Below, in pieces: positions 3,978-36,042 of a stretch of 64,000 bases of DNA. Both the position numbers and the translations under genes were made by a program. The stretch covers positions 33,849 through 97,848 of the IMG/VR virus record IMGVR_UViG_3300028048_003175. The stretch is one strand, 5' to 3'. Source of the stretch: a virus (Duplodnaviria > Caudoviricetes). The notes beneath the pieces were generated by a model. The model saw only the letters and a program-made list of their open reading frames with translations. It did no database searches and had not been told where the DNA came from. Each line of letters starts with the position of its first letter. The first letter of the stretch is position 1.

Positions 3978-5352
3978 CAACCAGACATTAGGAATAACAG
4001 GTACAATCGTCGTGCCTGACTACACCGTTTTTGTGTTCAACCCGAATTATGTGGAGCTGGACCTGGGAGGCTATACAGGTAGCCTTACCTTGTCAGTGAA
4101 CAGCGGAGTAAAGACATATGGCATTACCGTGAACCTCTACCAGGGGAAGGCGAAGTGCTATGTGTCACGACTCCTGCAGATACTCTTCGACGACTATATC
4201 TCAACTCGGTCGAAGCTGGTATCGATAGAAATCAAGGACGCACAGAACGAGGCTATCATGTCTGAGACATTCATGGCCTTCTGGGCTTCCATCGAGCCGG
4301 GACGGAAATTCGGCTACTACCATCCCTTCGTCTATGACAGGAACAAGTACCCGAAATATATTCGCGAGGTCATCTGGTTCAAGAACTTCCCCTTCCGCCT
4401 GTCCGTTTACAGGATTGCTCAGTTTTCTCCAGCTTACGCCCAGTGTGACGGAGGTGCAGCGAAGATGATCTATGAAGACGGTGAGTTCGTCTGGACTGTG
4501 AGTTCAAGAACACCAAGACGTCGAGCTCCGTCCGCAACATCGCTGGTGCTGCCTGCATCCCAGACACTGGACTTTAACCAGCTTCGTGAGGCTGGCCTTG
4601 CCGTTGATTTTGAACGCTCCGGCATCACGAATATCTCTGAGCTTAGCAGCATCACACTGGAAGATGTCGTGCTGAGAGACATTTACACTGGTGGCGAGAC
4701 CCAGATAGACTGGGACGACTACGCCGACAGGGGACTGGATATTGTTACCTACAATAACCTCTCCAACTTCAAGACGGGCATCACAGAGCTCTCCCCGATA
4801 TACATGTTCCCCAATGCTCAGCGGAAGGTGGTCTTTACCTTCATGCACAAGAGCGCGGACACGGCGAAGTTCAATGCGAACTTCAATATCACCTTCGGGG
4901 AAATGACGGAGCTTGCCTACATCGTCAAGCTGACAGTCTGCGAGGACACCGACGGTATCTACCTCCGCTGGATCGATAACTATGGATTCTGGCAGTATTT
5001 CCTCTTCGTAGCTGGAGAGAGAGAAAGCAAGCACAAGCAGAGCAAGGTGTCCGTGCCTGCCGAGTTTGAGGAGAACGGAGTACACCATAGTGCCACCCGT
5101 TGCAACTACGTGGAGAATGTCGACACAGTGAAATGCTGTGCCGTTGACTTGCGCAAGGAGATACTGTCCTACGTGCAGACCATCTACAACTCTCCGCATG
5201 TGGAAATGTATATCGGTGACAACTTTAACGAGGATGAAATGTGGAAGCCCGTCAACCTCGTCGATGCCTCTGTAAAGCTTAGCTCACAGAAGCAGCTCTT
5301 CGACTACGAGATATCCTTCACCATGTCCGACTCAGTATCACAAACACTTTAG
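3958..5352 (+). CDS. Minor tail protein (distal-tail-like)
   Basis: Beta-rich; C-terminal YLRWIDNYGFWQYFLF...SPHVEMY pattern seen in Bacteroidetes phage tail proteins; precedes the tail-tip gene. Confidence 0.6.
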   Translation: MRTITIDNQTLGITGTIVVPDYTVFVFNPNYVELDLGGYTGSLTLSVNSGVKTYGITVNLYQGKAKCYVSRLLQILFDDYISTRSKLVSIEIKDAQNEAIMSETFMAFWASIEPGRKFGYYHPFVYDRNKYPKYIREVIWFKNFPFRLSVYRIAQFSPAYAQCDGGAAKMIYEDGEFVWTVSSRTPRRRAPSATSLVLPASQTLDFNQLREAGLAVDFERSGITNISELSSITLEDVVLRDIYTGGETQIDWDDYADRGLDIVTYNNLSNFKTGITELSPIYMFPNAQRKVVFTFMHKSADTAKFNANFNITFGEMTELAYIVKLTVCEDTDGIYLRWIDNYGFWQYFLFVAGERESKHKQSKVSVPAEFEENGVHHSATRCNYVENVDTVKCCAVDLRKEILSYVQTIYNSPHVEMYIGDNFNEDEMWKPVNLVDASVKLSSQKQLFDYEISFTMSDSVSQTL

Positions 5353-20402: not shown

Positions 20403-23400
20403 ATGATAAACGTTCAAGAATTATTAGGCAAAGTCGCCAACAACGGCGCAACATTAGCCGGCATTCTTGCCTACGGTGAGTGGAATACTCTCGTGCAGGC
20501 AGTCCGTGAACTTCAAGGTCTTGTCGCTTCTGACGAGAGGTTGAATAACATCAATACTCAGCTTACCGCCCTTAGCGACCGCATTACAGCGTTGAAGAAT
20601 GAGAAGGACGGTGAAATAGCCCAGGTGCTCCAGCAGATTAACCAGACGCTGCAGGCCATTCTTACCGAGCAGGGCGCACGACAGCAGGGCGATGCTGCCT
20701 TGCAGACAGCCATCGACAATATGTCGGATGCTTTCAGTGACACCATCGATGCCCTCAGAGACATCGTTGACGGCAAGGCGACCATTGTGGAGCTGTCGAG
20801 CTACATGACCAACAATGCTCAACTGCCAAAGAACGGCCTTTACGTGTGGCACGGCAATCCTGTGGACTCGCGTATGTTCACTAAATCAGAAGGTGATACG
20901 CTATGGCTTGTCTTCTGTCTGCGTAAGGGTGATGACTCTGACAGTAATTTCGGTGCTGGCATTCGTGACTGTCTGGTATATTCGACTGACGGTGACTCCG
21001 ATCCGTTCTACTATGTCGGTCGCTATCTGAATGCCAATATTCCAGCGGACGTGCAGAAGGCCTTCGGCTATGACGATATGGCGAAGATAGTCACCATTAA
21101 CTTGTCAGACTACTATCCTTCTCTGGAGGAAAGTCAAAACGGTTACATTGCTCTTGACGAAGAAGAGCTGGCGGATATCTTTGAAACACCGTCAAAAGCG
21201 TATGCGCTCCATGACAGACGGCTTCGCGTCATCACGGATGAGAGTGAGTACTACGGATATCCTGCAACCATGCAGTATAGCGGCGGAAACTTTCACCGCT
21301 TGACCGTAGATATGGGGACTGAGATTTTGATAATCAGCATACCCGACGAAGGTGCATCAGCATTAGCATTCTCTGGCAATGGCGCCATGCGCCTTATCAG
21401 CCTGACGGAGATTCCTGCTGGTACAGTTACTGAGGATAATCTCGCTGCTGGTGTGAAGACGAAACTGAACAAGAGAGACGTCATCGATGTGGAATGGTGG
21501 TTCGACCCAGTACCACGTCGTATGTATACGCCGACGAAAGCAGGCCTCTATTGGTATGTGCCGACAGAAAAGCAATTGCTTGTCTCTGTTGAAACAGAGA
21601 ATAGCGGTGTTTACGAGTTCGTTGAGGTGACACCACAAGGCAATACCATCTATATCGATGTCGATGAGAATATTCCGTATATCTGGAAGGATGATGACAT
21701 GTCATCCATTGCGCCAAAGAAGGCTCCTGCCAGCATCTTCAACGCCACGAACGAGGTTCCCATCAGTGGCTACTATGTTCTGTGTGATGACGAGAACGAG
21801 TCCACCAGTGCCGTCCATGCCGCATGGAACGCGGAGAAGGCGGTGAGCGGTCTTATTATCTCCTTCGAGATAGGTGCAGGTATCTGGAAGACCTACCAGT
21901 ATGTCGGCAGAACCGTGACGGAGGTGAACTGGATGAACTCGGATAACTGGAAGGACTTCGGCTCCCTCGCTGCTGGCAGTGAATCGTACATCGTGATAGA
22001 CGGACTCATCGGTGCGCCAGTGGCTGGAGAGTTCTATACCTTAGAGACTGCAGTCGCTCGCCTGGTAGCCTATCAGCAGGAAACAGGTGTCACTTATGCC
22101 AAGAAAGGACTTGTCATCAGTTATCGCACGGCTGAGAACGTGATGGAGACCAAACAGTTCCAAGGTGAGATAAGTGGCTTTGGCGAAGTCGGACTTTGGA
22201 AAGATTTTGGCGGTGGCTCGGAGGTCGAGACGTCAGATGAGCCGGAAGAGGGTGGCACAGACGCACTGTCAACTGGTGGCGCATACACTCATACCCCTGC
22301 TGGTATCAGCGTCGATACAGAAACAGAGGGAGTCGTGAAGCTGAAACTCGTCAATGCAGGAGGCGAAGATGTAGGTGATGAGATACAGTTCCCCGTCGGC
22401 TCCGGCAGCGGTGGTGGTAGTGGTACGACCATTGCCGTGGCTTTCAGAGACAATCCGTTCTACGGAAAGGCTGGAGGTTCATTCCTCGTGAAAGCAGCTA
22501 TCATGTCTGTAACGAAGGCAGGTAGCCAGGAAACATCTAACACTATCACCAGTGTCGTATTCGTCAATCGCACCACAAAGAACACGGTTGCCAGCTTCAA
22601 TCCTCGTAAGGCTTCGAGTGCTACGATGTCCGACTATTCCTTCGAGTTTGACCTGAGCAATCTTGGACAGAGTGCCGGAGAAATACCTCTGCAGGCAATC
22701 ATCACTGATGATGGTGGCAACACAGCAACTAAGAATCTTAGCATGGTCGCTATTGATGTGACGTGTGTTAGCGTTCAGACGCTCAACTACACGCGAGAGA
22801 CATCATTACAGGTTGGTGGTCCGAGAACGTCCATCCCTATGTACCGTTTCCCGAACAATGCTTCCGATCGAGGCATACGCACCAAGATTGAGATATATAA
22901 GAACAATGCGTGGGAAACACTGCAGGAGATAGTCATTACAGATACCTATCCTCACAATGTCAGCATCGACCCGACAGGCATGGGGCATGGCGCATATCCT
23001 ATCCGCATACAGGGTACCGATGTTGCAAGTGGCACAAGGGGTAATATCCTGCATACCGCAGTCATGGTGATTGAGCAGCGTGAGGACGTTGCGGACTACG
23101 ACAAGCCTATTGTTGTCGCTCGTTGGAGTGATGACACAGACGGAGAGGTGAAGCTGTTTGAGACGCTGCAGATAGACATTGCCTGCTATCAGCGCAGCAC
23201 CAACCCGACTACCGTGCAGGTGAAGATAACTGACGAGACAACAGGAGTCAGCGAGACCATTTCCGAAAGTGCAATGTATCGCAACAAATACTACACTATC
23301 GAGAAGCGTATCGTTGGCTACAACAACGGTGACACGCTGGTATTCGATGCTGTGTGTGGATTGGTTTCGCTGCCAGAGACAAGAGAAGTGCATGTGAACG

Positions 23401-26400
23401 GTTCCTTGCTCGACATCGCAGAGACCGAGGGAGCACTCTACAAAATCAGTCTTGCAGGGCGCAGCAATACCGACACCGATAAGACGATCAAGACAACGGC
23501 AACTGACGGGACAGAATTGGAACTGGAGGTAATCGGTTCCAACTATTCAACCAACGGCTTTGTACCTGACACGTTTGGAACAGAGAAGAGCGGTGGTCGC
23601 ATGTCGTTGCGTGTGGCAGAGAATGTGAAAGCCGTATTTAACGACCAGCCATTCAAGAGTACGTCAATTCCTACAAATGGTTTGGCTCTCTCTATGACCT
23701 TCAAGGTTAAGAATATTGCAGACCGCAAGGCTCGCATCATCCGTTGTATGGGTGAGCGTCTCGGCTTCGTGCTGACGGGAGAGAAATTCTATGTCACGAC
23801 GAACGGAGATACTGACGAGGCATTGGCTTCTGTATTCACTACCGCTGCCACATCGTATCTTGATGACGTGGTATATCGCTTTGACATCGTGATAGAGCCG
23901 CAGTCAAGAGCACCATACAGTGGTGTCATGCTCTGCAAGGTGTTCCAGAATGGTGACATGGCTGCTTGTGTTCCTATCGATACGACCAGTGCTTTCCCGA
24001 ACTTCGACGACTTCATTCACTTTGACGGTACTGATGCAGACCTGTATCTGTACGAGATTGTCCGTTGGAACACTTACTACGACTTCATTCAAGCGTTCAA
24101 CAACTATATCGTGAACCTCACGGACACGCAGGCTATGCTTAAAGAGTATGAGCAGAACCGCGTTATGATAGACGTAACGGCTGAGGGTACCACAAAACCG
24201 CGTCCAGATATGCAGCGACTGATTGACCGTGGCGTGATGGTTTGTGTCGAGACAAGAACTTCAGACGCTAACTTGAGCAAAGATGGCTCTGCAGTAAGCG
24301 ATAGCGAGATATATTATCCAGACTATATCGAGAATATCAAGGATAAAAAGACTACCGTCATAATGGACTGGTATCTGTACTTCCCCGACCGTCCTTGGGC
24401 AGACTGCAAGATAGAGGCTATTCCTGTGACCAACCAAGGAACTTCGACCCTTGCTTATGCCATCAAGAACAAGAAGGGCAAGGCGAAGAAAGCCAAGCGT
24501 ATTGTCATGTTGCACACACGCGAAGAGGTGAGCCGCATGTACAATGGTGATGAGAACATTCTTGCGAAGTATGACGATGCAGTACGACTGGCTTCAAAGA
24601 AGAAGATTCGTATCAAGGACGGCAGCACCCCTATCAACACCATTACTATCAAGGTGGACTATTCTGACAGTGCAGGTGCCAACAACTGTGCGCTGATGGA
24701 GCAAATGAACGATGTACAGATTGCTTTGGGCAGGAACTACATGACACCTGCACAGATATTCAACACTGACAGTAGCGAGGAGCTGCACACCTCAATTGAT
24801 GGTATTACCTGCGCATTGTTCCGTACTGACTACCGTATCGGTCAAGACAAAGGCTCTGAGGCAGCAACACTTCCTGAGAACGCTTATTTCCACAGCAAGG
24901 CTAACTTCAATGCCGACAAGGGCAATCCCCATTTTTTCGGCTTTGAGGATGTGCCCGGCTACAACAAAGGCTGTGTGAACTATGGCGATTTCAAAGAGAT
25001 TGTTACACCGCGAGGAACCAACATCGATGATTACAAGGCTACGGTGCTGGCTGGTTCCGCAACACTTATTCCTGGCACTCTTTACATGATAAGTGAGTTC
25101 TGTGGTCCAGAAACGCGCTTCATAGAGAATGACGGAACAGGTGCCATGACAGAGACCGATGCCGTAGCAGAGTTCGAGGAGGTTGATAAGACAGGCGCTG
25201 AGATTGCTGCAGACGATGTAAGCGGTTACGACTGGGCAACAGTCTATCGCAGCACCGATAATAAGTACTACAAGTACGCAGGTGGTGTATGGCGCGATAC
25301 TACGGGCAGCATGACATACGACAGCAGCACCGGGAAGTGGGTGATTGTCGGAAGGGTGCTTAACCCAGTTGAGTGCTACGAGTACCGACAGTACCAGGAG
25401 TTCTGTTGGCAGCAGGGCGTGAACAGCGTTGATGATATGCTTGAAACGCTGCATACCGATGATGGCGATGTGCCTATCTGGTCAACATATTACGAGAGCC
25501 GTTATCCGGATGATGATGACTTGAACGACTTGTATGCACAGGGCAAGAAAGTACCTTACCAGTTGTTCCGTGAGCTGTTGTTCTGTCAGCAGTGTAATCA
25601 GAACCTCACCGACAATCAAGAGGAGAATGCCGCACTGAACCCCGATGGCAGCGAGAAAATCTTCAACGGTGCTGGTGCCAGTACTACGATAACCCTTGAT
25701 GGAAACACTGTAGCAGGAACTAAGGCTAACCGTCTGTTGAAGTGGCAGCACGAAATGCACAAGTATTACAATCCGTATTCCACAAACTGCTACATCGTAG
25801 GATCCGACTACAAGGCAACTGTTGACCAGCGAGCCAAGAATATGATGAAAGCAGTCTATAAGGAGACTGATGGCAGCATGCGTTTTTACTTCAACCACTG
25901 GTATGACGGTGATAGCGTTGACGAAGCAGACAATGACTGTTACCTGACCATTCCTTGGGACATGGACGCACGTTCAAGCCATCTCTATCAAGGGTGGGAC
26001 GGTGTGATGTTCCAGCAGACTTATGCGCTCTTTGAGCAGGGGAAGGGTGTCTGGATTGACAATGCCGGCACGCAGCTCACTCTCCATGATACGGCAGCAG
26101 CTATGCGAAATACAAAGACCAATGCAGGACTGGAGATTTTCAGTGCTGACGGTTGCTATCGCTACTGGATGACATACCGCATCTTGAAGTGGCCAAAGGT
26201 GGTGAGCAGTTTTGATGGAGAGCGTAAGTATATCGAAACAGCTACTGCAGCAGACAATCACTATCCGGCATTGCACGGATTGCGTCTTGAGAGTCTGCCA
26301 GCTTTCCAACGCAAGCGTTTCGCATATCGTGACGGTTACTTCCAGACAGGTGACCTGTTCAAGCACTTCTTCCAGGCGCGTGTGATGGGACCGATTACGG

Positions 26401-28913
26401 TTAAGATAACGGCAGCACAGGACGGTTACTTTGGTATGGGTGTTGATAGCACCAGCAGCGCAAAGTATTCGTGCTATCTGCAAGCAGGCGAGAGCCACAC
26501 CTTCACGGAAGCAGCAACCGGTGTCGGTGGTAAGCTGATTTACATCTTTGGTGCAGACAAGCTGAGCGAACTTGATTTGAGCGGCTGTACTCCGAAGAAC
26601 TCAAACTGGATGATTGCCGACTGCACCCTGTTAAGGAAACTGATCATCGGTGGCGCAAGCTATACTCCTGCTTATACTGATGATATTTTGTCAGCATTGA
26701 GCCTCGGACAGATGCCATTCCTGGAGGAGATAGACATAAGAAGTACACGAATTATGACGCTGAACGCAAGCGGTTGTCCTCGATTGAAGAAAGTGCTTGC
26801 AAGCGGCAGTCAGCTTCGCACGTTCACTCCTGCACAATCGTCACCGTTGCAGACAATCTCTCTTCCTGCAACCATGACGGACCTTATCTTTGTCAACCTC
26901 CCCAATATCGGCTATCCTAACGGTGGATTGACAATAGAGGGCTTGGCAAACGTGACACGTGTACAAGTGGCAGGTTGTCCGAAACTGGATGCCGTACAGT
27001 TGCTGTCTGATATTGTTTCAGCAAACGGAAGCATCAGCGAAATATCGCTGGAGGAGAAGAAGGTAACTGGCGACGTGGCTATTCTGCGTGCGTTGATTGC
27101 CAGCGGAGCAAAAGGATTCTCTTCAGACCTCACTACCGGCTGCGATGGTCTTAGCGGAAAGTGGATTCTGAACACGTTGATAGAGGACAGCGAGCTTGCG
27201 ACGATACGGGCTTACTTCCCACTTCTGACCGTCAGCAACTCATTGTATAGCGATTACAAGGAGTATGACCTCGAAAGCGACACTGAGAACGTTACGAACT
27301 TGGATAACCAGACTGGTTATGATTATAATAACGAGTACGTGCCAAGCGGCCATATCCTCAAGATACGCGCCAAAAGTGTTCCTGTGAAAGGTCAGTTCGA
27401 CAAGGTGACAAAAGCCATGACACTCACCAAATTGTCAGAGGAAAACTATAAGCAGTTCCCAGACGGTTCCGCTTTTGACAATACCGATGCTCTTGGTGAA
27501 GGCTATGACTGTTTCATCTACATTCCTAACTTCTACTACAAAGGTATCAACGACTTCAAGAGACAGGAGAAGCACACACTTTTGTCTGCCTTTGTCACTG
27601 AGCCGGAAGCCACATGGACGCAGAAGAAGGAGGGTGTCTTGTCTGAGCTCCTTTATGCTGACGCTTCTGGAATACCCATTGGCAGCATAAACGTGGGCGA
27701 TACATTCTCTGATGAGACGCATATTGCTATTCTGTCATCGTGTGCCGTGTATCGTCTCGATGTCGAGGGAATGAAGCAGGTTCGTTACATCGGTCTGAAT
27801 AATGCCACCTACGGCAGCATCTTCGTTGATAGTGAGGGAAAGGTGCTTCAGAAAGATGCTCTCTCGATAACAGGAACAACGGCATGTCCGCTGGACTTCA
27901 AGAACGAGAATGGTGACTATATCTATAGAGACGTGCCGACAGGTGCCAAGTGGATATACTTCACCTGCATCCGTGCGCTGTCTGATGAGGGTCATCCTGT
28001 CTTTGCCGTTGACAGTAGCGATATTGAGGCTATTGAGCCGGGCTGGGAGAAGCACTACTCTGAGGTGATAGGTATCTATGGCGCAAGTATAGATGACCTC
28101 GGCTTCATCCGTTCACTTTCCGGCAAGGTGACAAAGCGAGGCACTGGAACGAGCACCACATCATCGGAATGGACCTACGATGCCGACGGAATGCCGACCA
28201 ATCAGCCAGTTGGAGCCTTGAACTACACTGGACAGGACTTCTATAATCTCTGTTATCTGCGTGGAGAGGGTTATCATGATGTCAGCTACGACCAGAACAA
28301 GACCATTGCTATCCTCTCGAAGTGCTGGATAGGCGACCGAGACGACCAGGCGAAACACGGTATGGGTGTTTCCGCAGGCTATACCACTGGCCAACTTGAC
28401 AGTTATGGTAGCCATGATACCGCTTCCGGAATGAACAAGATCTGGAAGCTTGAGGCATGGGTGGCTTGTAACTGGGAGTTCATGGACTACGTCGGTGTGA
28501 ACATCAGCAGCTTCATCGAATGGAGAAGAAACAAACGTCCGCAGTCGGGTACGGTCGATGCTGTATGGCATATCTATGACCCACATACTAATACGGAGCG
28601 CACTGTGCAGGGTATAACTAATTCGGGTGTTTGTATCGCCCGTCTGAAGCATGGTCGTCACTGCGACATCATTGCGAGCAGTTGTAACTCTGACAGTAGC
28701 AGGTGGAATACCTGTTATGCAGCAGGTAATTACTATACAGCCACTGGTGGGCGCGTGGTTGGTCGTGCGCTCTACAATGCGGGTGCGTATGGCGGTTGCG
28801 TTTGTGCGGACGCGAGCTACGCTTCTTCGGGCTCGTATGCGTTCGTCGGTGCGCGTCTCGCCTTCAGCGGAAGATTCGCAAACGAAAGCGAAATAGACCC
28901 GGAGCTGCAGTAA
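20403..28913 (+). CDS. Giant multidomain virion/receptor-binding protein; DGR target with C-terminal CLec-type variable domain
   Basis: 2836 aa: N-terminal coiled coil, duplicated W.DFG module, Ig/LamG-like beta regions, CotH-kinase-like motifs, LRR-like repeats (LEEIDIRSTRIMTLNASGCPRLKKV), and terminal RVVGR...GARLAF containing the VR. Confidence 0.88.
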   Translation: MINVQELLGKVANNGATLAGILAYGEWNTLVQAVRELQGLVASDERLNNINTQLTALSDRITALKNEKDGEIAQVLQQINQTLQAILTEQGARQQGDAALQTAIDNMSDAFSDTIDALRDIVDGKATIVELSSYMTNNAQLPKNGLYVWHGNPVDSRMFTKSEGDTLWLVFCLRKGDDSDSNFGAGIRDCLVYSTDGDSDPFYYVGRYLNANIPADVQKAFGYDDMAKIVTINLSDYYPSLEESQNGYIALDEEELADIFETPSKAYALHDRRLRVITDESEYYGYPATMQYSGGNFHRLTVDMGTEILIISIPDEGASALAFSGNGAMRLISLTEIPAGTVTEDNLAAGVKTKLNKRDVIDVEWWFDPVPRRMYTPTKAGLYWYVPTEKQLLVSVETENSGVYEFVEVTPQGNTIYIDVDENIPYIWKDDDMSSIAPKKAPASIFNATNEVPISGYYVLCDDENESTSAVHAAWNAEKAVSGLIISFEIGAGIWKTYQYVGRTVTEVNWMNSDNWKDFGSLAAGSESYIVIDGLIGAPVAGEFYTLETAVARLVAYQQETGVTYAKKGLVISYRTAENVMETKQFQGEISGFGEVGLWKDFGGGSEVETSDEPEEGGTDALSTGGAYTHTPAGISVDTETEGVVKLKLVNAGGEDVGDEIQFPVGSGSGGGSGTTIAVAFRDNPFYGKAGGSFLVKAAIMSVTKAGSQETSNTITSVVFVNRTTKNTVASFNPRKASSATMSDYSFEFDLSNLGQSAGEIPLQAIITDDGGNTATKNLSMVAIDVTCVSVQTLNYTRETSLQVGGPRTSIPMYRFPNNASDRGIRTKIEIYKNNAWETLQEIVITDTYPHNVSIDPTGMGHGAYPIRIQGTDVASGTRGNILHTAVMVIEQREDVADYDKPIVVARWSDDTDGEVKLFETLQIDIACYQRSTNPTTVQVKITDETTGVSETISESAMYRNKYYTIEKRIVGYNNGDTLVFDAVCGLVSLPETREVHVNGSLLDIAETEGALYKISLAGRSNTDTDKTIKTTATDGTELELEVIGSNYSTNGFVPDTFGTEKSGGRMSLRVAENVKAVFNDQPFKSTSIPTNGLALSMTFKVKNIADRKARIIRCMGERLGFVLTGEKFYVTTNGDTDEALASVFTTAATSYLDDVVYRFDIVIEPQSRAPYSGVMLCKVFQNGDMAACVPIDTTSAFPNFDDFIHFDGTDADLYLYEIVRWNTYYDFIQAFNNYIVNLTDTQAMLKEYEQNRVMIDVTAEGTTKPRPDMQRLIDRGVMVCVETRTSDANLSKDGSAVSDSEIYYPDYIENIKDKKTTVIMDWYLYFPDRPWADCKIEAIPVTNQGTSTLAYAIKNKKGKAKKAKRIVMLHTREEVSRMYNGDENILAKYDDAVRLASKKKIRIKDGSTPINTITIKVDYSDSAGANNCALMEQMNDVQIALGRNYMTPAQIFNTDSSEELHTSIDGITCALFRTDYRIGQDKGSEAATLPENAYFHSKANFNADKGNPHFFGFEDVPGYNKGCVNYGDFKEIVTPRGTNIDDYKATVLAGSATLIPGTLYMISEFCGPETRFIENDGTGAMTETDAVAEFEEVDKTGAEIAADDVSGYDWATVYRSTDNKYYKYAGGVWRDTTGSMTYDSSTGKWVIVGRVLNPVECYEYRQYQEFCWQQGVNSVDDMLETLHTDDGDVPIWSTYYESRYPDDDDLNDLYAQGKKVPYQLFRELLFCQQCNQNLTDNQEENAALNPDGSEKIFNGAGASTTITLDGNTVAGTKANRLLKWQHEMHKYYNPYSTNCYIVGSDYKATVDQRAKNMMKAVYKETDGSMRFYFNHWYDGDSVDEADNDCYLTIPWDMDARSSHLYQGWDGVMFQQTYALFEQGKGVWIDNAGTQLTLHDTAAAMRNTKTNAGLEIFSADGCYRYWMTYRILKWPKVVSSFDGERKYIETATAADNHYPALHGLRLESLPAFQRKRFAYRDGYFQTGDLFKHFFQARVMGPITVKITAAQDGYFGMGVDSTSSAKYSCYLQAGESHTFTEAATGVGGKLIYIFGADKLSELDLSGCTPKNSNWMIADCTLLRKLIIGGASYTPAYTDDILSALSLGQMPFLEEIDIRSTRIMTLNASGCPRLKKVLASGSQLRTFTPAQSSPLQTISLPATMTDLIFVNLPNIGYPNGGLTIEGLANVTRVQVAGCPKLDAVQLLSDIVSANGSISEISLEEKKVTGDVAILRALIASGAKGFSSDLTTGCDGLSGKWILNTLIEDSELATIRAYFPLLTVSNSLYSDYKEYDLESDTENVTNLDNQTGYDYNNEYVPSGHILKIRAKSVPVKGQFDKVTKAMTLTKLSEENYKQFPDGSAFDNTDALGEGYDCFIYIPNFYYKGINDFKRQEKHTLLSAFVTEPEATWTQKKEGVLSELLYADASGIPIGSINVGDTFSDETHIAILSSCAVYRLDVEGMKQVRYIGLNNATYGSIFVDSEGKVLQKDALSITGTTACPLDFKNENGDYIYRDVPTGAKWIYFTCIRALSDEGHPVFAVDSSDIEAIEPGWEKHYSEVIGIYGASIDDLGFIRSLSGKVTKRGTGTSTTSSEWTYDADGMPTNQPVGALNYTGQDFYNLCYLRGEGYHDVSYDQNKTIAILSKCWIGDRDDQAKHGMGVSAGYTTGQLDSYGSHDTASGMNKIWKLEAWVACNWEFMDYVGVNISSFIEWRRNKRPQSGTVDAVWHIYDPHTNTERTVQGITNSGVCIARLKHGRHCDIIASSCNSDSSRWNTCYAAGNYYTATGGRVVGRALYNAGAYGGCVCADASYASSGSYAFVGARLAFSGRFANESEIDPELQ
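28750..28865 (+). repeat. DGR variable repeat (VR)
   Basis: Aligns without gaps to 29026-29141; 21 mismatches by hand count, each opposite a TR adenine. Confidence 0.95.
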
Positions 28914-28935
28914 GCAGCGCAAAACGTGGCACGTT

Positions 28936-28966
28936 GGGCAGGGGGAAAGAAAAAAGCCCCCTGCCC
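28936..28966 (+). other. GC-rich hairpin/cruciform downstream of the VR
   Basis: GGGCAGGGGG-(11-nt A-rich loop)-CCCCCTGCCC, a perfect 10-bp stem; adjacent near-palindrome AACGTG-G-CACGTT at 28923-28935. Confidence 0.75.
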
Positions 28967-29025
28967 CCGAGCCCCAAAAAACGTCCCCAAGTGTGAGGAT
29001 GAAAAAAGGTAGAGGACTTCCTCAT

Positions 29026-29141
29026 GGCGCGTGGTTGGTCGTGCGAACAACAATGCGAATGCGAATGGCGGTTGCGTTTATGCGAACGCGAACAACGCTT
29101 CTTCGAACTCGAATACGAACAACGGTGCGCGTCTCGCAAAC
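29026..29141 (+). ncRNA. DGR template repeat (TR), core of the template RNA
   Basis: AAC/AAT-rich copy of the VR, with 12 AAY codons in the target frame before the terminal GCAAAC; lies in a non-coding gap upstream of the RT. Confidence 0.93.
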
Positions 29142-29350
29142 AAGTTAATCAGCTCTATGGTGTATGCTTGCGTGACAGGCAATGACAATGGCTGACAAGT
29201 CCGAGCCTCGGCAACAGCAATTTCTCTCCAGTCTGCAAAGAAATGGAAAGAATTGGAAAGCGGAAAAACCAAAGGTGCAACCTATGATAGGTGAGTAAAC
29301 AAGGAATTGGCTGAAAGTCTTAACGGTTGCGGAATGAAGGATTATTCAGA

Positions 29351-30643
29351 ATGAGTAAAAGATACGGTCATATATTACCGCAAATCATCGATAGGCGAAA
29401 CATGGACGATGCCTTTGATGAGGTTGTAGGTGGCCTTGAGTCGAAAGAGCGTCGTGAGCACTATGAGGCACAAAGAGAGGATATTATATCACGGCTGACT
29501 GCCAAGATAGGCTCCGGCACCTTTCGAATCACTCATTACGAACAGTTCTGGGTACAAGACGGACCTAAGCGTAGGTTGATACAGTCGCCCAGTGTGAAAG
29601 ACAGAATAGGTTGCAATGCCGTGATGAGAGTGGTGGAGAAGTATATCTACCCGACTATCATCAAGACTTCTGCTGCAAGCATCAAAGGACGTGGCATGCA
29701 CAGACTATACCGTAAGATGCGGACGGACGTGCGCCATGACCGAGAGGGAACGAAGTACTTCTATATGTGCGACATCAGAAAGTTCTATGAGAGCGTAGAT
29801 CAAGACCTGACGTTTGAAATATTGAAGGGCTATATCAAAGACCCTGTGGTGCTGCCGATGCTGGAGAGTTTTATAAGACTCATGCCGAAAGGACTTTCCA
29901 TCGGATTGCGTTCTTCGCAGTGCTTCGGCAATATGCTCCTGTCAAAGATGGGTCACAGGCTAAAGGAGAAAGAGGGTGTTCGCTACCTTTATATCTACTG
30001 TGATGACATACGAGTGTATGGTGCAACGAAGAAGTGGCTTTGGCATATCCGAGACATCATTCACGAAGAGATAGAGGGTCTTGGACTGGAGATAAAGCCC
30101 AGTGAGGCAGTCAAGCCTACGACAGAGGGAAATGATTTCCTTGGGTATATCGACTATGGCGACCATTCGAGATTAAGAAAGAGAACAAAACAGAAAGCCG
30201 CACGGAAACTTGCCCGAATAAAGAGCCGTAAGCGCAGGCAGAAAATTATCGGTTCATTCAAGGGCATGGCGAAGTGGGGTGATTGTAAACATTTATATAG
30301 AACGCTAACAGGAAAAGACATGGAAGAGTTCAAAGACTTTGGGCTGCAGTATGTGGCAGATGATGGGAAAAAGCGGTTTGCTGGTGAGACGGTAAAGTTG
30401 CACCAGTTGACAAACATGCACATCAGCATCACAGATTTTGAAGAGAACGTAGATACTGCTAACGGCAAACGTACCCTGGTGTCATTTAAGTATGACAATG
30501 GGACTCCAGCCAAGTATTTCACTGCAGACAAGCAGCAGTTGTATTTCCTTAAACGACTGAGTGAAATGCACAAGATTCCGTTCGGTACAGTCATCAAAAG
30601 TGAGAGTTATGGAAACGGGAAGGTTCGATATATATTCACTTAA
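29351..30643 (+). CDS. DGR reverse transcriptase with C-terminal extension
   Basis: KRRLIQSP..KDRI, CDIRKFYESV, GLSIGLRSSQCFGN, YCDD, DFLGY. The RT core ends near 30315 and is followed in frame by ~107 extra aa. Confidence 0.93.
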   Translation: MSKRYGHILPQIIDRRNMDDAFDEVVGGLESKERREHYEAQREDIISRLTAKIGSGTFRITHYEQFWVQDGPKRRLIQSPSVKDRIGCNAVMRVVEKYIYPTIIKTSAASIKGRGMHRLYRKMRTDVRHDREGTKYFYMCDIRKFYESVDQDLTFEILKGYIKDPVVLPMLESFIRLMPKGLSIGLRSSQCFGNMLLSKMGHRLKEKEGVRYLYIYCDDIRVYGATKKWLWHIRDIIHEEIEGLGLEIKPSEAVKPTTEGNDFLGYIDYGDHSRLRKRTKQKAARKLARIKSRKRRQKIIGSFKGMAKWGDCKHLYRTLTGKDMEEFKDFGLQYVADDGKKRFAGETVKLHQLTNMHISITDFEENVDTANGKRTLVSFKYDNGTPAKYFTADKQQLYFLKRLSEMHKIPFGTVIKSESYGNGKVRYIFT

Positions 30644-30655
30644 ATAAATACGAAT

Positions 30656-31156
30656 ATGAAATTAGAGAAAATCTATGGTGCTACAGCACGACAGGACGGG
30701 CTCTACAAGATAGGGCGCAACAAGTACGAACTCATCTATGGCTATGGCGTGGATGGAGAGAATGGCTACAACTGGCGCAGAAGGTATCGCAACTTGCCAA
30801 CAGTAGAGGAACTGAAAACGGACATCGAAGACACAGTTAACGCTCTTACAGACGAGAAGATCTTGAAGGGTTTTTCTTGGAACGGCAAGAACGTCTATCT
30901 TTCTTCGGAAAACCAGTTCAACTTCAAAGCGGCATACGACCTTGCAGTACAGACGCAGGGTGCTACGCTGCCTGTAAAGTTCAAGCTGGGTGAAGATGCA
31001 GAAGGGAAGCCGGTGTACCATACCTTTGAAGACATGGACGAGTTTACGGATTTCTTCACGAAGGCAATAGCCTACGTCAACCAAACGCTCAACGACGGCT
31101 GGCTGAAGAAGGACGCTGTGGACTACGACGCTTTGCTGGAAGGAGGTGAGGAATGA
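30656..31156 (+). CDS. DUF4376-like tail-fibre-associated protein
   Basis: VYLSSENQFNFKA and GWLKKD patterns; position after the fibre/DGR. Confidence 0.6.
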   Translation: MKLEKIYGATARQDGLYKIGRNKYELIYGYGVDGENGYNWRRRYRNLPTVEELKTDIEDTVNALTDEKILKGFSWNGKNVYLSSENQFNFKAAYDLAVQTQGATLPVKFKLGEDAEGKPVYHTFEDMDEFTDFFTKAIAYVNQTLNDGWLKKDAVDYDALLEGGEE

Positions 31157-32124: not shown

Positions 32125-32402
32125 TAGGATGCGTTTACAAGCCTCTGGAGGTGGAGGCTGTCGAAGTCACGGAGTCCAACTTCAAGGAAATCTGCGACTT
32201 CGTGGACGGTCACCACCCCCAGATGGCTGACAATCCGACAATGCCGAGAGGAAAGTATCTCGGTGTATTTATCGAGACGCGCTATGGGCGCCAGTTGGCA
32301 CGGTTAGGGGAGTATGTCGTCAAGGTGGGGGCAATGGATTACAGGACCTACACCCGTGACGAGTTTGTGAAAACGTTTAATCTTAAAATGAAGAATCAAT
32401 GA
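32115..32402 (+). CDS. Hypothetical phage protein
   Basis: Overlaps both neighbours; ARLGEYVVK...EFVKTF. Confidence 0.6.
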   Translation: MGVIGCVYKPLEVEAVEVTESNFKEICDFVDGHHPQMADNPTMPRGKYLGVFIETRYGRQLARLGEYVVKVGAMDYRTYTRDEFVKTFNLKMKNQ

Positions 32403-33127
32403 ACAGAAAATCAATTGCATTAGTCTTTGGAACGGCTCATGTTGACAGCACGCCGGGCAAGTGTGCGCCTGACGGCTCCATCCGTGAGGCTGTCTATTCC
32501 AGAGAAATCATAAAGGACCTTGTTGCGATTATGGAGAACACCTACGGCTTTTCCGTATTCACGGACTATATGCCTATGGAGCCTCTGCCAAAGTGGACTG
32601 AGGCACGGAAGCGCCTCGGCTATTCAAAGGGTGAGCAACCCTTGGAACTGGACCACCGTGTGCAGCAGGTCAACGCCATCTGTGACAAGTTCGGCAAGGA
32701 GAACACCCTTTTCGTCTCTATCCACCTCAACGGTGCCGGTGATGACGGCAAGTGGCATGGTGCTGGCGGTTGGTGCTGCTATACCACTCCTGGAAAGACC
32801 AAGTCGGACATTCTCGCAGAGTGTTTCTACGATGCAGCCTTTGAGAACCTGCGTCCGTATGTCACCATCATGGATGAGGGCAAGCGCAGGGGCGAATATA
32901 CTGAGAAGCAGACACCGTACCGCATGGATAAGAGGGACGGTGACAGGGACATGGAGGCAAACCTCTATGTGCTGCGCAAGACTGCCTGCCCTGCCGTGCT
33001 GACGGAGAACCTGTTCCAGGATAACCGCCTCGACGTGAAATTCCTCCTTTCCGAGGAAGGACGGCAGGCTATTACACGGCTGCATGTCGAAGGCATCCTC
33101 CGATATGTCGAAAAGACGTACAAGTAA
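32399..33127 (+). CDS. N-acetylmuramoyl-L-alanine amidase (Amidase_3) endolysin
   Basis: Zn-ligand motifs GTAH...E, FVSIHLN, LYVLRKTACPAVLTENLF. Confidence 0.88.
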   Translation: MNRKSIALVFGTAHVDSTPGKCAPDGSIREAVYSREIIKDLVAIMENTYGFSVFTDYMPMEPLPKWTEARKRLGYSKGEQPLELDHRVQQVNAICDKFGKENTLFVSIHLNGAGDDGKWHGAGGWCCYTTPGKTKSDILAECFYDAAFENLRPYVTIMDEGKRRGEYTEKQTPYRMDKRDGDRDMEANLYVLRKTACPAVLTENLFQDNRLDVKFLLSEEGRQAITRLHVEGILRYVEKTYK

Positions 33128-33174
33128 CTGAAAAAGAAGGTGCTGTTGATAAATTTCTCATTTGTATGAATGAC

Positions 33175-33207
33175 GGAGGCGTGGACGGGTTCCTCTGCCT
33201 CCTTTTT
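33175..33207 (+). terminator. Intrinsic terminator after the endolysin
   Basis: GGAGGC...GCCTCC followed by TTTTT. Confidence 0.7.
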
Positions 33208-33279
33208 CTCCAAAAATTCCGTTTTGGAGCCGCTTTTCAGCAAAAAAGTAATCATTTTCAGTTAAAAAGTAGTAAAAAC

Positions 33280-33310
33280 TACAATATTTTACAATATTTT
33301 CGTATATTTG
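33280..33310 (+). promoter_or_regulatory. Promoter of the pfs-luxS-metK operon
   Basis: TATATTTG -7 box at 33303-33310, preceded by tandem ACAATATTTT x2 (33281-33300) in an AT-rich gap. Confidence 0.6.
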
Positions 33311-33351
33311 CAACTGTTAATTTATCAAAACCCATCTAAAACGTATCTAAG

Positions 33352-33531
33352 ATGCAGAAAATGTCAGAATATCCCGAAAAGTCACTGCGAACGACTGGTA
33401 AGGCAGTTTTTCCAGAAATCGCAGGTGAAATGAAGCCCAAGAACCGCCGTTTTATGGGTGTCGTCGTATTCGGAGCTGACAAGAAGGGCTTTTCACGTCC
33501 TGTCTGCGCCAAGAGCCGCATAGAGGGGTAG
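33352..33531 (+). CDS. Possible 59-aa leader ORF (or structured 5' leader)
   Basis: MQKMSEYPEKSLRTTGKAVFPEIAGEMKPKNRRFMGVVVFGADKKGFSRPVCAKSRIEG between the promoter and pfs. Confidence 0.35.
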   Translation: MQKMSEYPEKSLRTTGKAVFPEIAGEMKPKNRRFMGVVVFGADKKGFSRPVCAKSRIEG

Positions 33532-33579
33532 TTTTCCATAATCACTATCTACTAACGTCAATAACACAATCAAAACAGT

Positions 33580-34308
33580 ATGAAAAAGATTGGAATCATA
33601 GTAGCGATGGATTTGGAGCTTCAAATGTTGCTGAATCGCATCGGCTGCAAGCCGGAGCCTGCCAACCCTGCAGGCGTAGTCATCTTTTCCGGGAAAATCG
33701 ACGACGATGATGTCATTATCTGCAAGTCCGGCATCGGCAAGGTCAATGCCGCCATCGCCACGGTGACGCTTATCACCCAGTACCAGCCAGACTACATCAT
33801 CAACACTGGTGTGGCTGGGTCTCTCGATCCAAATGTAGTAGCAATGGATATCATCATCGGTTCCAGCGTGAAGTACTGTGACGTGTGGTGTGGTAGTGGA
33901 AACGTTCGCGGACAGGTGCAGGGAGAGCCTGAATGGTACCCGTGCATCGATGTGAACATCAAGAGCAAGGGCATCGACAGCCTGCAGTACAAGTATATGA
34001 CCAAGAAGCACATCTGCGGTGTGCGCCGTGCTCCAATCGTGTCTGGTGACTGGTTCATGGAAACGGTAGCCGACAAACTGAAGGCCAGACGTGCCAGCGG
34101 ACGTGCCAAGGCTGTGGATATGGAGTCTGGAGCCATCGCACAGGTCTGCCATAGGTTCAACATGCCGTTCATCCCCGTCCGCATCATCAGCGATGTCGTT
34201 GGCGAGCCTCAGCATGAGAAGAAGTACGAAGGGTTCTGGCAGGACATGGCCAGCCGCTCCTTCGATATATTGATAGAGCTTATCAAGGAAATCAATGGAC
34301 AAGATTAA
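33580..34308 (+). CDS. mtnN: 5'-methylthioadenosine/S-adenosylhomocysteine nucleosidase (Pfs)
   Basis: GIIVAMDLE (catalytic Glu), SGIGKVNAA, INTGVAG, DMESGAIAQVC, RIISD. Confidence 0.92.
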   Translation: MKKIGIIVAMDLELQMLLNRIGCKPEPANPAGVVIFSGKIDDDDVIICKSGIGKVNAAIATVTLITQYQPDYIINTGVAGSLDPNVVAMDIIIGSSVKYCDVWCGSGNVRGQVQGEPEWYPCIDVNIKSKGIDSLQYKYMTKKHICGVRRAPIVSGDWFMETVADKLKARRASGRAKAVDMESGAIAQVCHRFNMPFIPVRIISDVVGEPQHEKKYEGFWQDMASRSFDILIELIKEINGQD

Positions 34309-34783
34309 GAGTTTTCAGATAGACCACACGAGGCTGCAGAGCGGTCTCTATGTGTCGCGCTTCGATCCTGCCAGGGAAGGTGCCGACCATGTTGTCACCA
34401 CCTTTGACATTCGCATCTGCAAGCCTTACCATGACCAGCCGATGGACGGCTGTGCCATGCACACCATCGAGCACCTTGGGGCAACGTTCCTGCGCACGAA
34501 GAGCTACTATGCCGACAGCATCATCTACTTCGGACCGATGGGGTGCCGAACAGGCTTCTACCTTATCATCGACGGCAAGTTGGACGTGGAAGATGTCAAG
34601 GGTACCGTGAAGGAAATGTTCGCATGGATAGCCACCTATGACGGTCCCATTCCTGGCTCTACGGTGCAGGAGTGCGGCAATGCCGAGTTCCACGATTTAC
34701 AGGAGGCGCGACGCATCGCCCATGAGTATTTCAACGGAACGCTCTGCAATCTCGACGAAACGAATACCATTTATCCAGAATAA
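34295..34783 (+). CDS. luxS: S-ribosylhomocysteine lyase (AI-2 synthase)
   Basis: SFQIDH, metal site HTIEH, GPMGCRTGFY (catalytic Cys), ECGN. Confidence 0.96.
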   Translation: MDKIKSFQIDHTRLQSGLYVSRFDPAREGADHVVTTFDIRICKPYHDQPMDGCAMHTIEHLGATFLRTKSYYADSIIYFGPMGCRTGFYLIIDGKLDVEDVKGTVKEMFAWIATYDGPIPGSTVQECGNAEFHDLQEARRIAHEYFNGTLCNLDETNTIYPE

Positions 34784-34785
34784 CA

Positions 34786-36042
34786 ATGAAGAGACTATTT
34801 ACATCAGAATCAGTTTCGGAAGGCCATCCCGACAAGATAGCCGACCAGATTAGTGATGCCATCCTCGACTACTATATCTGCCATGACGCAGACAGCCACG
34901 TCGGCTGTGAGACGTTCGTGACGACAGGGCAAGTGGTCGTAGGCGGTGAAGTGAAGTCACGCGCAACGGCTCCCGTGCAGGATATCGTTCGCAGGGTTAT
35001 CAAACAGATTGGCTACGACAAGGCTTGTTATGGCTTTGCTGCAGATGCCGTCGGCATCCTGAACGCCATGCATCAGCAGTCCCCAGATATCGCACAGGGT
35101 GTGGAGTCGAAGGAGCAGGGTGCCGGTGACCAGGGAATGATGTTCGGCTATGCCACTGGCGAGACGCCAGCGTTCATCCCGTTCCCCCTCTATCTCTCAC
35201 ACCTCATCGTGAAGACCCTCAGCGATATCCGCAAGAAGAAGCTCGGCATGATGGAGTACCTGCGTCCGGACAGCAAGGCACAGGTGACGGTAGAGACCGA
35301 TGAGGACGGTCGAACTATCCGCATCGACACTGTTGTTGTCAGTACCCAGCATGACGTGTTCGCCCAGAGCGACGGACAGATGCAGTCAATGATAGCCCAT
35401 GACATCAAGGCCATCGTGTTCCCTGCAGTATTGTCACAGATACCAGAGGGACGCTGCAAGGAGATAGCCCGTCAGCTATTGGGTGACGACTACAAGCTGC
35501 TGGTGAACCCCACAGGACGTTTCGTTATCGGAGGTCCTGCAGGCGACAGCGGACTGACAGGCAGAAAGATCATCGTTGACACCTACGGAGGCTATGCCCC
35601 TCATGGCGGTGGCGCGTTCAGCGGTAAAGACCCCTCGAAGGTTGACCGCAGCGCGGCATACATGGGTCGCTACCTCGCCAAGAACCTCGTAGCTGCTGGA
35701 GTGGCTGACGAGGTGACGATACAGCTTGCCTACGCCATCGGTGTGGCACAGCCCGTCAGCGTGTGTGTTAAGACGAAAGGCAACAATACCAGCCTCAGCG
35801 ACACGGAGATTGCCGAGCATATCGTCAAGCTCTTCGACCTCTCTCCGAGAGCCATCACCATTAGGCTGAACCTGAATACCCCAATCTATGAAGAGACGGC
35901 AGCATACGGTCACTTCGGTCGTGAGCGTAAGGTTGTCACCAAGAACATTGGAGGACTGACAGGACAGGTGGTACTCTTCCCATGGGAGGCTCTTGACATT
36001 ACTGAAATGCTGATGGTCCACTTTCAGAACTTTATGAAATAA
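34786..36042 (+). CDS. metK: S-adenosylmethionine synthetase
   Basis: FTSESVSEGHPDK, GAGDQG, GLTGRKIIVDTYGG, GGGAFSGKDPSKVDRSAAY, TAAYGHFGR. Confidence 0.97.
   Translation: MKRLFTSESVSEGHPDKIADQISDAILDYYICHDADSHVGCETFVTTGQVVVGGEVKSRATAPVQDIVRRVIKQIGYDKACYGFAADAVGILNAMHQQSPDIAQGVESKEQGAGDQGMMFGYATGETPAFIPFPLYLSHLIVKTLSDIRKKKLGMMEYLRPDSKAQVTVETDEDGRTIRIDTVVVSTQHDVFAQSDGQMQSMIAHDIKAIVFPAVLSQIPEGRCKEIARQLLGDDYKLLVNPTGRFVIGGPAGDSGLTGRKIIVDTYGGYAPHGGGAFSGKDPSKVDRSAAYMGRYLAKNLVAAGVADEVTIQLAYAIGVAQPVSVCVKTKGNNTSLSDTEIAEHIVKLFDLSPRAITIRLNLNTPIYEETAAYGHFGRERKVVTKNIGGLTGQVVLFPWEALDITEMLMVHFQNFMK

Follow-up and report, generated by a model that had tools for sequence, protein, structure and literature searches.

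The window, a 64-kb stretch of viral DNA that makes up the right-hand part of the 97.8-kb IMG/VR provirus record IMGVR_UViG_3300028048_003175, contains a diversity-generating retroelement (DGR) whose reverse transcriptase (RT) of 430 amino acids (aa) is encoded by an open reading frame (ORF) at 29351-30643. On balance, we interpret residues 324-430 of this enzyme, its C-terminal domain (CTD), as a dedicated accessory module of a Bacteroidales DGR lineage that lacks Avd, the Hankyphage type or lineage 3/3a of Wu et al. 2018; the module would also be started separately at Met324 and would fill part of the role of Avd. The components of this interpretation differ in strength: the CTD is probably a DGR-dedicated module, internal initiation at Met324 is somewhat favoured by comparison of the sequences, and an Avd-like role is proposed tentatively. 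The cassette itself belongs to the Hankyphage-type lineage, which is already known. Relative to the literature, the apparently new elements are the recognition of the extension as a protein family, the occurrence of fused and split forms in nature, a selected internal start signal, and the placement of the RT-3 and RT-17 RNAs as DGR spacers.

The original prediction, made from the sequence of the window, had described an Avd-less DGR whose RT carries a fused, possibly separately translated domain. Its observations were confirmed, with all coordinates and sequences exact on rechecking, and its interpretation is supported in part: no Avd is detectable, the module is discrete and conserved, and homologues occur as separate ORFs. 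Two parts of the system had been overlooked, namely a CH1/DUF4376 ORF downstream of the RT gene, found throughout the clade of fused genes, and the RT-3 spacer RNA.

An appended module in fused and split forms

The RT core is recognized by RVT_1 (residues 73-265, E 2e-10) and by phrog_1423 (E 7e-79). A full-length AlphaFold model built from a 43-sequence alignment reached a predicted local distance difference test score (pLDDT) of 91.8, with values of about 87-93 in the CTD and 64-71 in the linker (approximately residues 321-345). Its best match in the PDB was bRT, the RT of the BPP-1 DGR (8ub7_A; Foldseek E 2.2e-21, template modelling score 0.89 on target), and the superposition spanned 335 columns in which all 328 bRT residues were covered by residues 1-323. 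The RT core thus corresponds to a complete bRT, and residues 324-430 (107 aa) are therefore an addition. The bRT-like fold, together with the [I/L]GxxxSQ motif, present as SIGLRSSQ at residues 183-190 with G185, R187, S189 and Q190 invariant or nearly so, places the enzyme among DGR-clade RTs.

The proposal of a beta-rich domain beyond the RT thumb, running from MEEFKDFGLQY to GKVRYIFT, was borne out by the structural model and by a match to PHROG 19665, an unnamed phage family of 105 positions (E 4.1e-15; residues 11-106 of the domain on profile positions 10-104). A conserved N-terminal segment (FKD..Y..DGKKRF.G) is followed by a small beta-barrel with the order b1-b2-b3-helix-b4-b5, which was also obtained when the CTD was modelled alone (pLDDT 81). 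None of 30 members of the domain matched a Pfam family, NCBIfam likewise gave no family, and a sequence-profile search of the PDB with the CTD returned only noise. The predicted strand order fits an oligonucleotide/oligosaccharide-binding (OB) fold, as had been suggested, and like the OB-fold single-stranded DNA (ssDNA) binders PrgE (8s4s), Rim1 (6cqk), T4 gp32 and PRD1 P12 the model shows a barrel of five strands in which a helix connects the third and the fourth. Such binders recur among its structural matches (PrgE, Rim1, gp32, PRD1 P12, Teb1 and RPA). However, these matches are weak and in the range of chance (Z<=4.6 in VIA-align; best Foldseek E 0.013, to PrgE), and the CTD differs from the ssDNA binders in showing no sequence-profile similarity to them, so that of the OB-like assignment it is the topology that agrees. 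A lead from the nearest Atlas language-model cluster, 44% of whose members carry Phi29_Phage_SSB, was not confirmed: hhalign of the 30-sequence domain profile against phi29 p5 gave a probability of 0.1%. The isoelectric point (pI) of the CTD is 8.8.

An exhaustive profile search with the CTD over 1.84 billion representatives retrieved 184 clusters, a mixture of RTs of 410-580 aa matched at their C-terminus and proteins of about 100-110 aa. Loci were classified with three profiles, one each for RT core, domain and downstream ORF. Every locus with genomic context had the module at the 3' end of the RT gene (144 loci, 106 fused and 38 split; most of the 184 clusters lie outside this count), in agreement with the expectation that the domain would co-occur with DGR RTs. 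RT and domain share one frame in the fused form, whereas in the split form the RT ORF is followed by a domain ORF in the +1 frame that overlaps it by 14-17 nucleotides (nt). The split form was found in 35 viral contigs and in three contigs of Paludibacter/Microbacter metagenome-assembled genomes (MAGs), which substantiates the statement in the original prediction that similar sequences occur as separate ORFs after Bacteroidales DGR RTs.

The split-clade ORFs (for example L004:6001-6318) and PHROG 19665 are homologous to the CTD, 102-109 aa long, and positioned directly after a sister-clade DGR RT; they differ from it in being separate +1-frame ORFs overlapping the RT stop and in lacking the DGKKRF motif. 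The truly separate subgroup begins with MKKFSDLG. The split ORF starts with ATG in 14 of the 15 variants examined, at the residue homologous to Met324, and two groups that share only about 39% identity in their domains both have the split layout. In one split variant (L034:1010), ATT replaces the domain ATG and the RT stop lies earlier. The split loci are true DGRs, as illustrated by locus L004, in which two variable repeats (VRs), a template repeat (TR) and the RT gene precede the CTD ORF. This DGR (L004:3853-6318) has two small tandem targets of 185 and 126 aa, with VRs at 4259-4338 and 4666-4745 and a single TR at 4850-4929, and sits in a Mu-like phage with DUF3164 and DUF4494 upstream. Split-clade cassettes differ from that of the window in their small targets, their RT-17 RNA and the lack of a CH1 gene.

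In the tree of RT cores, fused (38 rows) and split (12 rows) genes were separated by one branch with support of 100/99. The two groups are reciprocally monophyletic, and bRT, which was the only outgroup, joins on the branch that divides them; therefore, the tree gives no direction of change. Database proteins of 107-109 aa with the DGKKRF motif (P0054 and others) were rejected as stand-alone genes: their contigs are shorter than 1 kb and all relatives with context are fused (80/80). Locus scans with P0148 and P0136 found nothing, and loci L040 and L041 were dropped as weak partial matches.

Several loci deserve separate mention. In LoVEphage (MW660583, L038:4787-6339), the RT homologue is spread over three frames (profile positions 2-175, 180-281 and 259-322), with an unbroken CTD in the last of them and no DUF4376 ORF following; this may be a decayed DGR, a frameshift pair, or a sequencing error common to several records. 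An in-frame stop at L135:4923-4925 splits the RT of a Hankyphage-like contig near residue 298. A partial match to the group II intron model D1-D4-3 (L052:10818-10855; 34.5 bits, cut by the end of the locus) lies a few kb 3' of a fused-clade DGR.

Met324 as a candidate internal start

The in-frame ATG at 30320 lies in an A-rich context and is preceded by CTAACAGGAAAAGAC, as originally described. Among 43 diverse RT fusions, whose alignment columns are on average 38% identical, 40 have Met at the junction, and a Met lies no more than two residues away in the other three, while linker positions 317-318, 322-323 and 325-326 vary freely. The frequency of A over positions -18 to -1 of Met324 is 0.50 in the window and averages 0.55 across 38 lineages, compared with 0.28 gene-wide; by the same measure, genuine RT and CH1 starts reach 0.44-0.45 and other in-frame ATGs 26%. 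This enrichment extends to synonymous choices: Leu at -5 is TTA/CTA 12 times out of 13 (13% gene-wide), Thr at -4 is ACA equally often (12/13; 19% gene-wide), and the third codon positions upstream of Met324 contain 58 A where 20.6 would be expected. When the gene was scanned along its whole length with a window of six codons, A excess peaked (z 9.4) at residues 315-320, with the ten highest windows all within residues 313-326. The next peak (z 3.9, residues 424-429) lies directly ahead of the CH1 start, which makes it an internal positive control. Since fourfold sites are saturated between lineages (0.26-0.34 identity), the enrichment reflects selection rather than shared ancestry. These comparisons indicate that the Met codon and the A-rich leader of the fused genes are under selection, and indirectly they agree with the appearance expected of an internal initiation region in Bacteroidales. 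Bacteroidales have no strong Shine-Dalgarno rule, and the start context was therefore judged by A-richness alone. Separate translation, the other half of the earlier proposal, thus has comparative support from the conserved junction Met and from a synonymous A-enrichment that is the strongest in the gene, and internal initiation at Met324 appears a little better than even.

The alternative that survives best, although we consider it unlikely, is that the CTD is an integral RT domain that is never made separately, the Met and the A-rich tract being a hydrophobic anchor, a slowly translated or unstructured linker that aids folding of the two domains, or an RNA signal unrelated to initiation. The domain is fused to the RT in 106 of the 144 loci, F327, three residues after the Met, is near-invariant as well, so that the Met could be structural, and the tract encodes a basic linker. 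Nevertheless, the synonymous bias towards TTA/CTA and ACA goes beyond what selection on the protein would produce, and the same statistic marks the true start region of CH1. Moreover, the sister clade encodes the module from this exact Met, and the linker, predicted to be flexible from its low pLDDT, is a poor place for a structural Met.

Absence of Avd and the downstream DUF4376 ORF

The claim that the DGR lacks Avd was examined across the phage with four models (PF05635, TIGR02436, PF22296 (bAvd) and NF033474), none of which had a six-frame match at E<=1 in the 97.8-kb provirus; a comparable search with PF22296, run as a positive control, recovered BPP-1 Avd (2.2e-37). Hankyphage and BKO1-TP3, searched as complete genomes, and partial contigs of the split clade were likewise without an Avd match. 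Avd is a basic four-helix bundle of about 110-130 aa encoded beside the TR and RT; here the CTD is beta-rich and the product of the DUF4376 ORF is acidic. A 64-aa Hankyphage ORF between VR and TR was rejected as an Avd candidate: it belongs to no family and has no conserved counterpart in the window. These results accord with the description of lineage 3 DGRs as lacking avd, with lineage 3a limited to Bacteroides and relatives, and with whole-genome searches of avd-less DGRs that found no avd (Wu et al. 2018, PMC5758913). The same study reported a C-terminal extension without known motif, as long as about 150 aa, in about 20% of DGR RTs. Its lineage 3/3a resembles the window DGR in being avd-less, in its occurrence in Bacteroides and relatives, in its acidic CH1-like ORF and in the RT extension; in contrast to the present analysis, the extension was not defined as a family, and neither stand-alone forms nor internal initiation were considered (PMC5758913).

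The ORF downstream of the RT gene starts 13 nt after the RT stop and encodes an acidic protein with a pI of 4.81. Its match to DUF4376 (PF14301) is marginal, at 25.2 bits where 25 is the cut-off, and DUF4376 proteins make up the Atlas clusters nearest to it; no Avd model matched it in the six-frame search, and no NCBIfam family and no PDB sequence match was found for it. In size, pI and position (166 aa, 4.81) it corresponds to CH1 of Wu et al. (160-169 aa, pI 4.7), an accessory candidate found only in avd-less DGRs (PMC5758913). It is also the gene marked 'Avd' in PV107405 (L003:3824-4309; pI 4.8-5.0) and probably the ORF that Benler et al. likened to Avd. Among the 106 fused loci, one is cut short by the contig end before this position; the other 105 extend far enough, and in 103 of them the ORF comes next after the RT, whereas two lack it.

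That this ORF, rather than the CTD, is the Avd substitute, with the CTD secondary, is nevertheless improbable. Its near-constant presence in fused loci, its restriction to avd-less DGRs in the survey of Wu et al. (PMC5758913) and the 'Avd' note in PV107405 speak for such a role. On the other hand, the protein is acidic (pI 4.8, compared with 9.5 for Avd; PMC5758913), is matched by no Avd model, and carries DUF4376, the domain present in gp27 of Alteromonas phage V22, a tail-fibre chaperone established by experiment (PMC7289586, PMC10579305). Moreover, it is absent from all split-clade DGRs examined (32 viral loci with enough downstream sequence and three MAG loci). Since these have small targets in place of a giant fibre, CH1 tracks the target type and not the RT. 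The ORF probably encodes a fibre chaperone, set apart from the fibre gene by insertion of the TR and RT; participation in the DGR seems improbable as well, and the 'Avd' annotation in the Hankyphage GenBank notes is probably wrong. Very improbable is a divergent or host-encoded Avd that escaped detection, with the CTD serving some other purpose, for instance in integrating the cDNA or recognizing the target: the Avd search covered the provirus record and not the host genome, but four models gave no candidate at E<=1 in 97.8 kb, the related phage genomes and partial split-clade contigs were equally without a match, and the whole-genome searches of Wu et al. found none.

The module is proposed as the accessory factor because it is the only protein besides the RT core that is common to both clades. 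In all loci classified it lies at the 3' end of the RT gene, either fused in frame or as a separate +1-frame ORF overlapping the RT end; what distinguishes the two arrangements is a single shift of frame immediately ahead of the shared Met codon. According to the proposal, in fused genes ribosomes would also start at Met324, yielding both RT-tethered and free copies of the module. Working with the RT core and the RT-3 spacer RNA, the module may take over at least part of the task of Avd, either gripping the template RNA or the cDNA while synthesis is primed and carried out, or handling the cDNA; a conserved basic DGKKRF segment precedes the predicted barrel, and extra free copies could complete an oligomer. 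In its strongest and more speculative form, the module would be a new class of DGR accessory that replaces Avd throughout a widespread lineage of gut phages and acts at a fixed ratio of free to tethered copies on the RT-3 RNA in self-primed, adenine-mutagenic cDNA synthesis.

Several observations weigh against the interpretation of the CTD as a separately started, Avd-like accessory module. Support for the fold is weak (Z<=4.6, Foldseek E 0.013), comparison of sequence profiles connects the CTD with no single-stranded DNA-binding protein, and the conserved N-terminal segment of the CTD is modelled at low confidence. The CTD is not consistently basic, with a mean pI of 7.4 in fused-type and 8.1 in split-type domains as opposed to 9.5 for Avd. 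The fused and split clades are reciprocally monophyletic, an arrangement that favours neither direction of change. A-richness is the only property by which the start context is recognized, and the tract also encodes a Lys/Arg-rich linker; the case for a separate Met324 product is a comparative one. A predicted complex between a split-clade RT and its stand-alone domain scored 0.00, which is evidence neither way.

Cassette, natural diversification and implications

The cassette is of the Hankyphage type, with a target gene containing the VR, a hairpin, the TR, an RT-3 spacer RNA, the 430-aa RT and the DUF4376 ORF (Table 1).

Table 1. Features of the DGR cassette, in window coordinates
Feature	Position	Strand	Basis or property
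DGR target gene, 2836 aa, giant, tail-fibre-like, VR at C-terminus	20403..28913	+	ORF
VR	28750..28860	+	19/19 core mismatches to TR at TR adenines
GC-rich hairpin, 10-bp stem, 11-nt loop, 23 nt 3' of target stop	28936..28966	+	fold -18.1 kcal/mol, z -3.8
TR, about 26 adenines, 8 AAC + 4 AAT codons in VR frame	29026..29136	+	repeat comparison with VR
Spacer RNA, Rfam RF03068 RT-3	29147..29330	+	56.1 bits against gathering cut-off 40.5, full-length model match
DGR RT core, residues 1-323, fingers/palm/thumb, YCDD and SIGLRSSQ motifs	29351..30319	+	RVT_1, phrog_1423, bRT structure match
A-rich tract in RT ORF, codons 314-323, candidate initiation region for Met324	30290..30319	+	A content, third-position A excess
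In-frame ATG (Met324) at RT core/CTD junction	30320..30322	+	conservation; homologous to split-ORF initiator Met
CTD, residues 324-430	30320..30643	+	phrog_19665 E 4e-15; predicted models
CH1-like DUF4376 ORF, 166 aa, pI 4.8	30656..31156	+	DUF4376 25.2 bits, phrog_19239 1.5e-46

VR and TR differ at TR adenines only, and the VR lies at the 3' end of the target gene (ending 53 nt before its stop), as is characteristic of a DGR. For the target protein, Pfam gave no match at E<=0.01; Hankyphage records contain a counterpart encoded by a gene of 6.7 kb that has the VR at the equivalent position and is noted as 'Tail fibre protein'. The hairpin (0 of 200 shuffles folded as well) occupies the position of a DGR target-site hairpin, and could alternatively be a terminator. 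The gap of 437 nt between the end of the target stop (28913) and the RT ATG (29351) was as predicted and does contain the hairpin and the TR; the spacer, however, is not featureless but consists of the structured RT-3 RNA, which is matched over the full model and ends 21 nt upstream of the RT ATG. RT-3 was described as an orphan RT-associated motif (Weinberg et al. 2017, PMC5737381). It is found at the same place in Hankyphage (146.6 bits) and in four other fused-clade loci, and the TR-RT spacer varies by lineage: fused-clade loci have RT-3, those of the split clade RT-17, and BPP-1 has Phage_DGR (spacer motifs at 29147-29330 of the window, L001:4831-4980, L004:4952-5033 and L148:1200-1332). 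The orphan Rfam motifs RT-3 and RT-17 are thus likely the TR-RT spacer RNAs of two DGR lineages.

Four bovine-gut metagenomes from different studies carry the phage, and two contigs span the 2.1-kb stretch with 29 differences each. The best-supported differences listed fall at 34 distinct sites, 25 of them in the VR and 24 of these 25 at TR adenines; among the differences listed, only a few lie in the RT gene. Altogether, 24 of the 26 TR-adenine sites vary among the four metagenomes, and the comparison, being made with contigs, concerns variation between samples. The DGR is therefore active in nature, and its diversification is directed to adenines. In Hankyphage, adenine-directed diversification of the VR has been measured in culture (PMC12135933). 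Near-identical copies of window positions 28600-30700 are present in bovine gut metagenomes from at least eight studies, and additional short contigs that pile up on the TR (29026-29167) suggest related DGRs with similar TRs in the same samples.

The closest known system is the DGR of Hankyphage p00 (BK010646; Benler 2018, PMC6199706), which shares with the window a giant target with VR, the TR, RT-3 RNA, RT and DUF4376 ORF, and whose RT of 434 aa carries a fused domain that is about 40% identical and starts at a Met. The RTs are 46% identical overall, and Hankyphage comes from human Bacteroides, whereas the window comes from bovine gut. The C-terminal domain is not described in the two Hankyphage papers (PMC6199706, PMC12135933). 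The BPP-1 bRT-Avd complex (8ub7) resembles the window system in the superposable RT core, in the order of TR, structured spacer RNA and RT, and in adenine-specific mutagenesis; unlike the window RT, which instead has a beta-rich module of 107 aa, it needs Avd, a basic pentamer of four-helix bundles, and its spacer RNA is Phage_DGR instead of RT-3. The region had no megablast match in the phage collection, and a tRNA search of the window found none. An Amidase_3 lysin is encoded at 32399-33127, and the prophage seems to end soon afterwards: from approximately 33580 (within window 32399-36042), translations resemble host genes, including a Pfs-like nucleosidase, LuxS and MetK.

To our knowledge, what is understood of the DGR mechanism derives entirely from BPP-1, whose system depends on Avd. 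Roughly a quarter of all DGRs lack avd, including those of the Hankyphage lineage, which is among the most widespread of human-gut phages. How such DGRs work was raised as a question by Wu et al. (2018, PMC5758913). The analysis corrects a likely mis-annotation of Avd in Hankyphage and reveals a natural experiment in which split and fused forms can be compared. The Met324 codon, the A-rich leader, and deletion of the domain or its supply in trans offer genetic handles, and a culturable lysogen with measurable DGR activity exists, B. thetaiotaomicron jmh43 under repC silencing being an example (PMC12135933). A compact two-part system of RT-CTD and RNA could simplify DGR-based mutagenesis tools for Bacteroidales, and the CTD presents a concrete candidate for the missing factor of avd-less DGRs.

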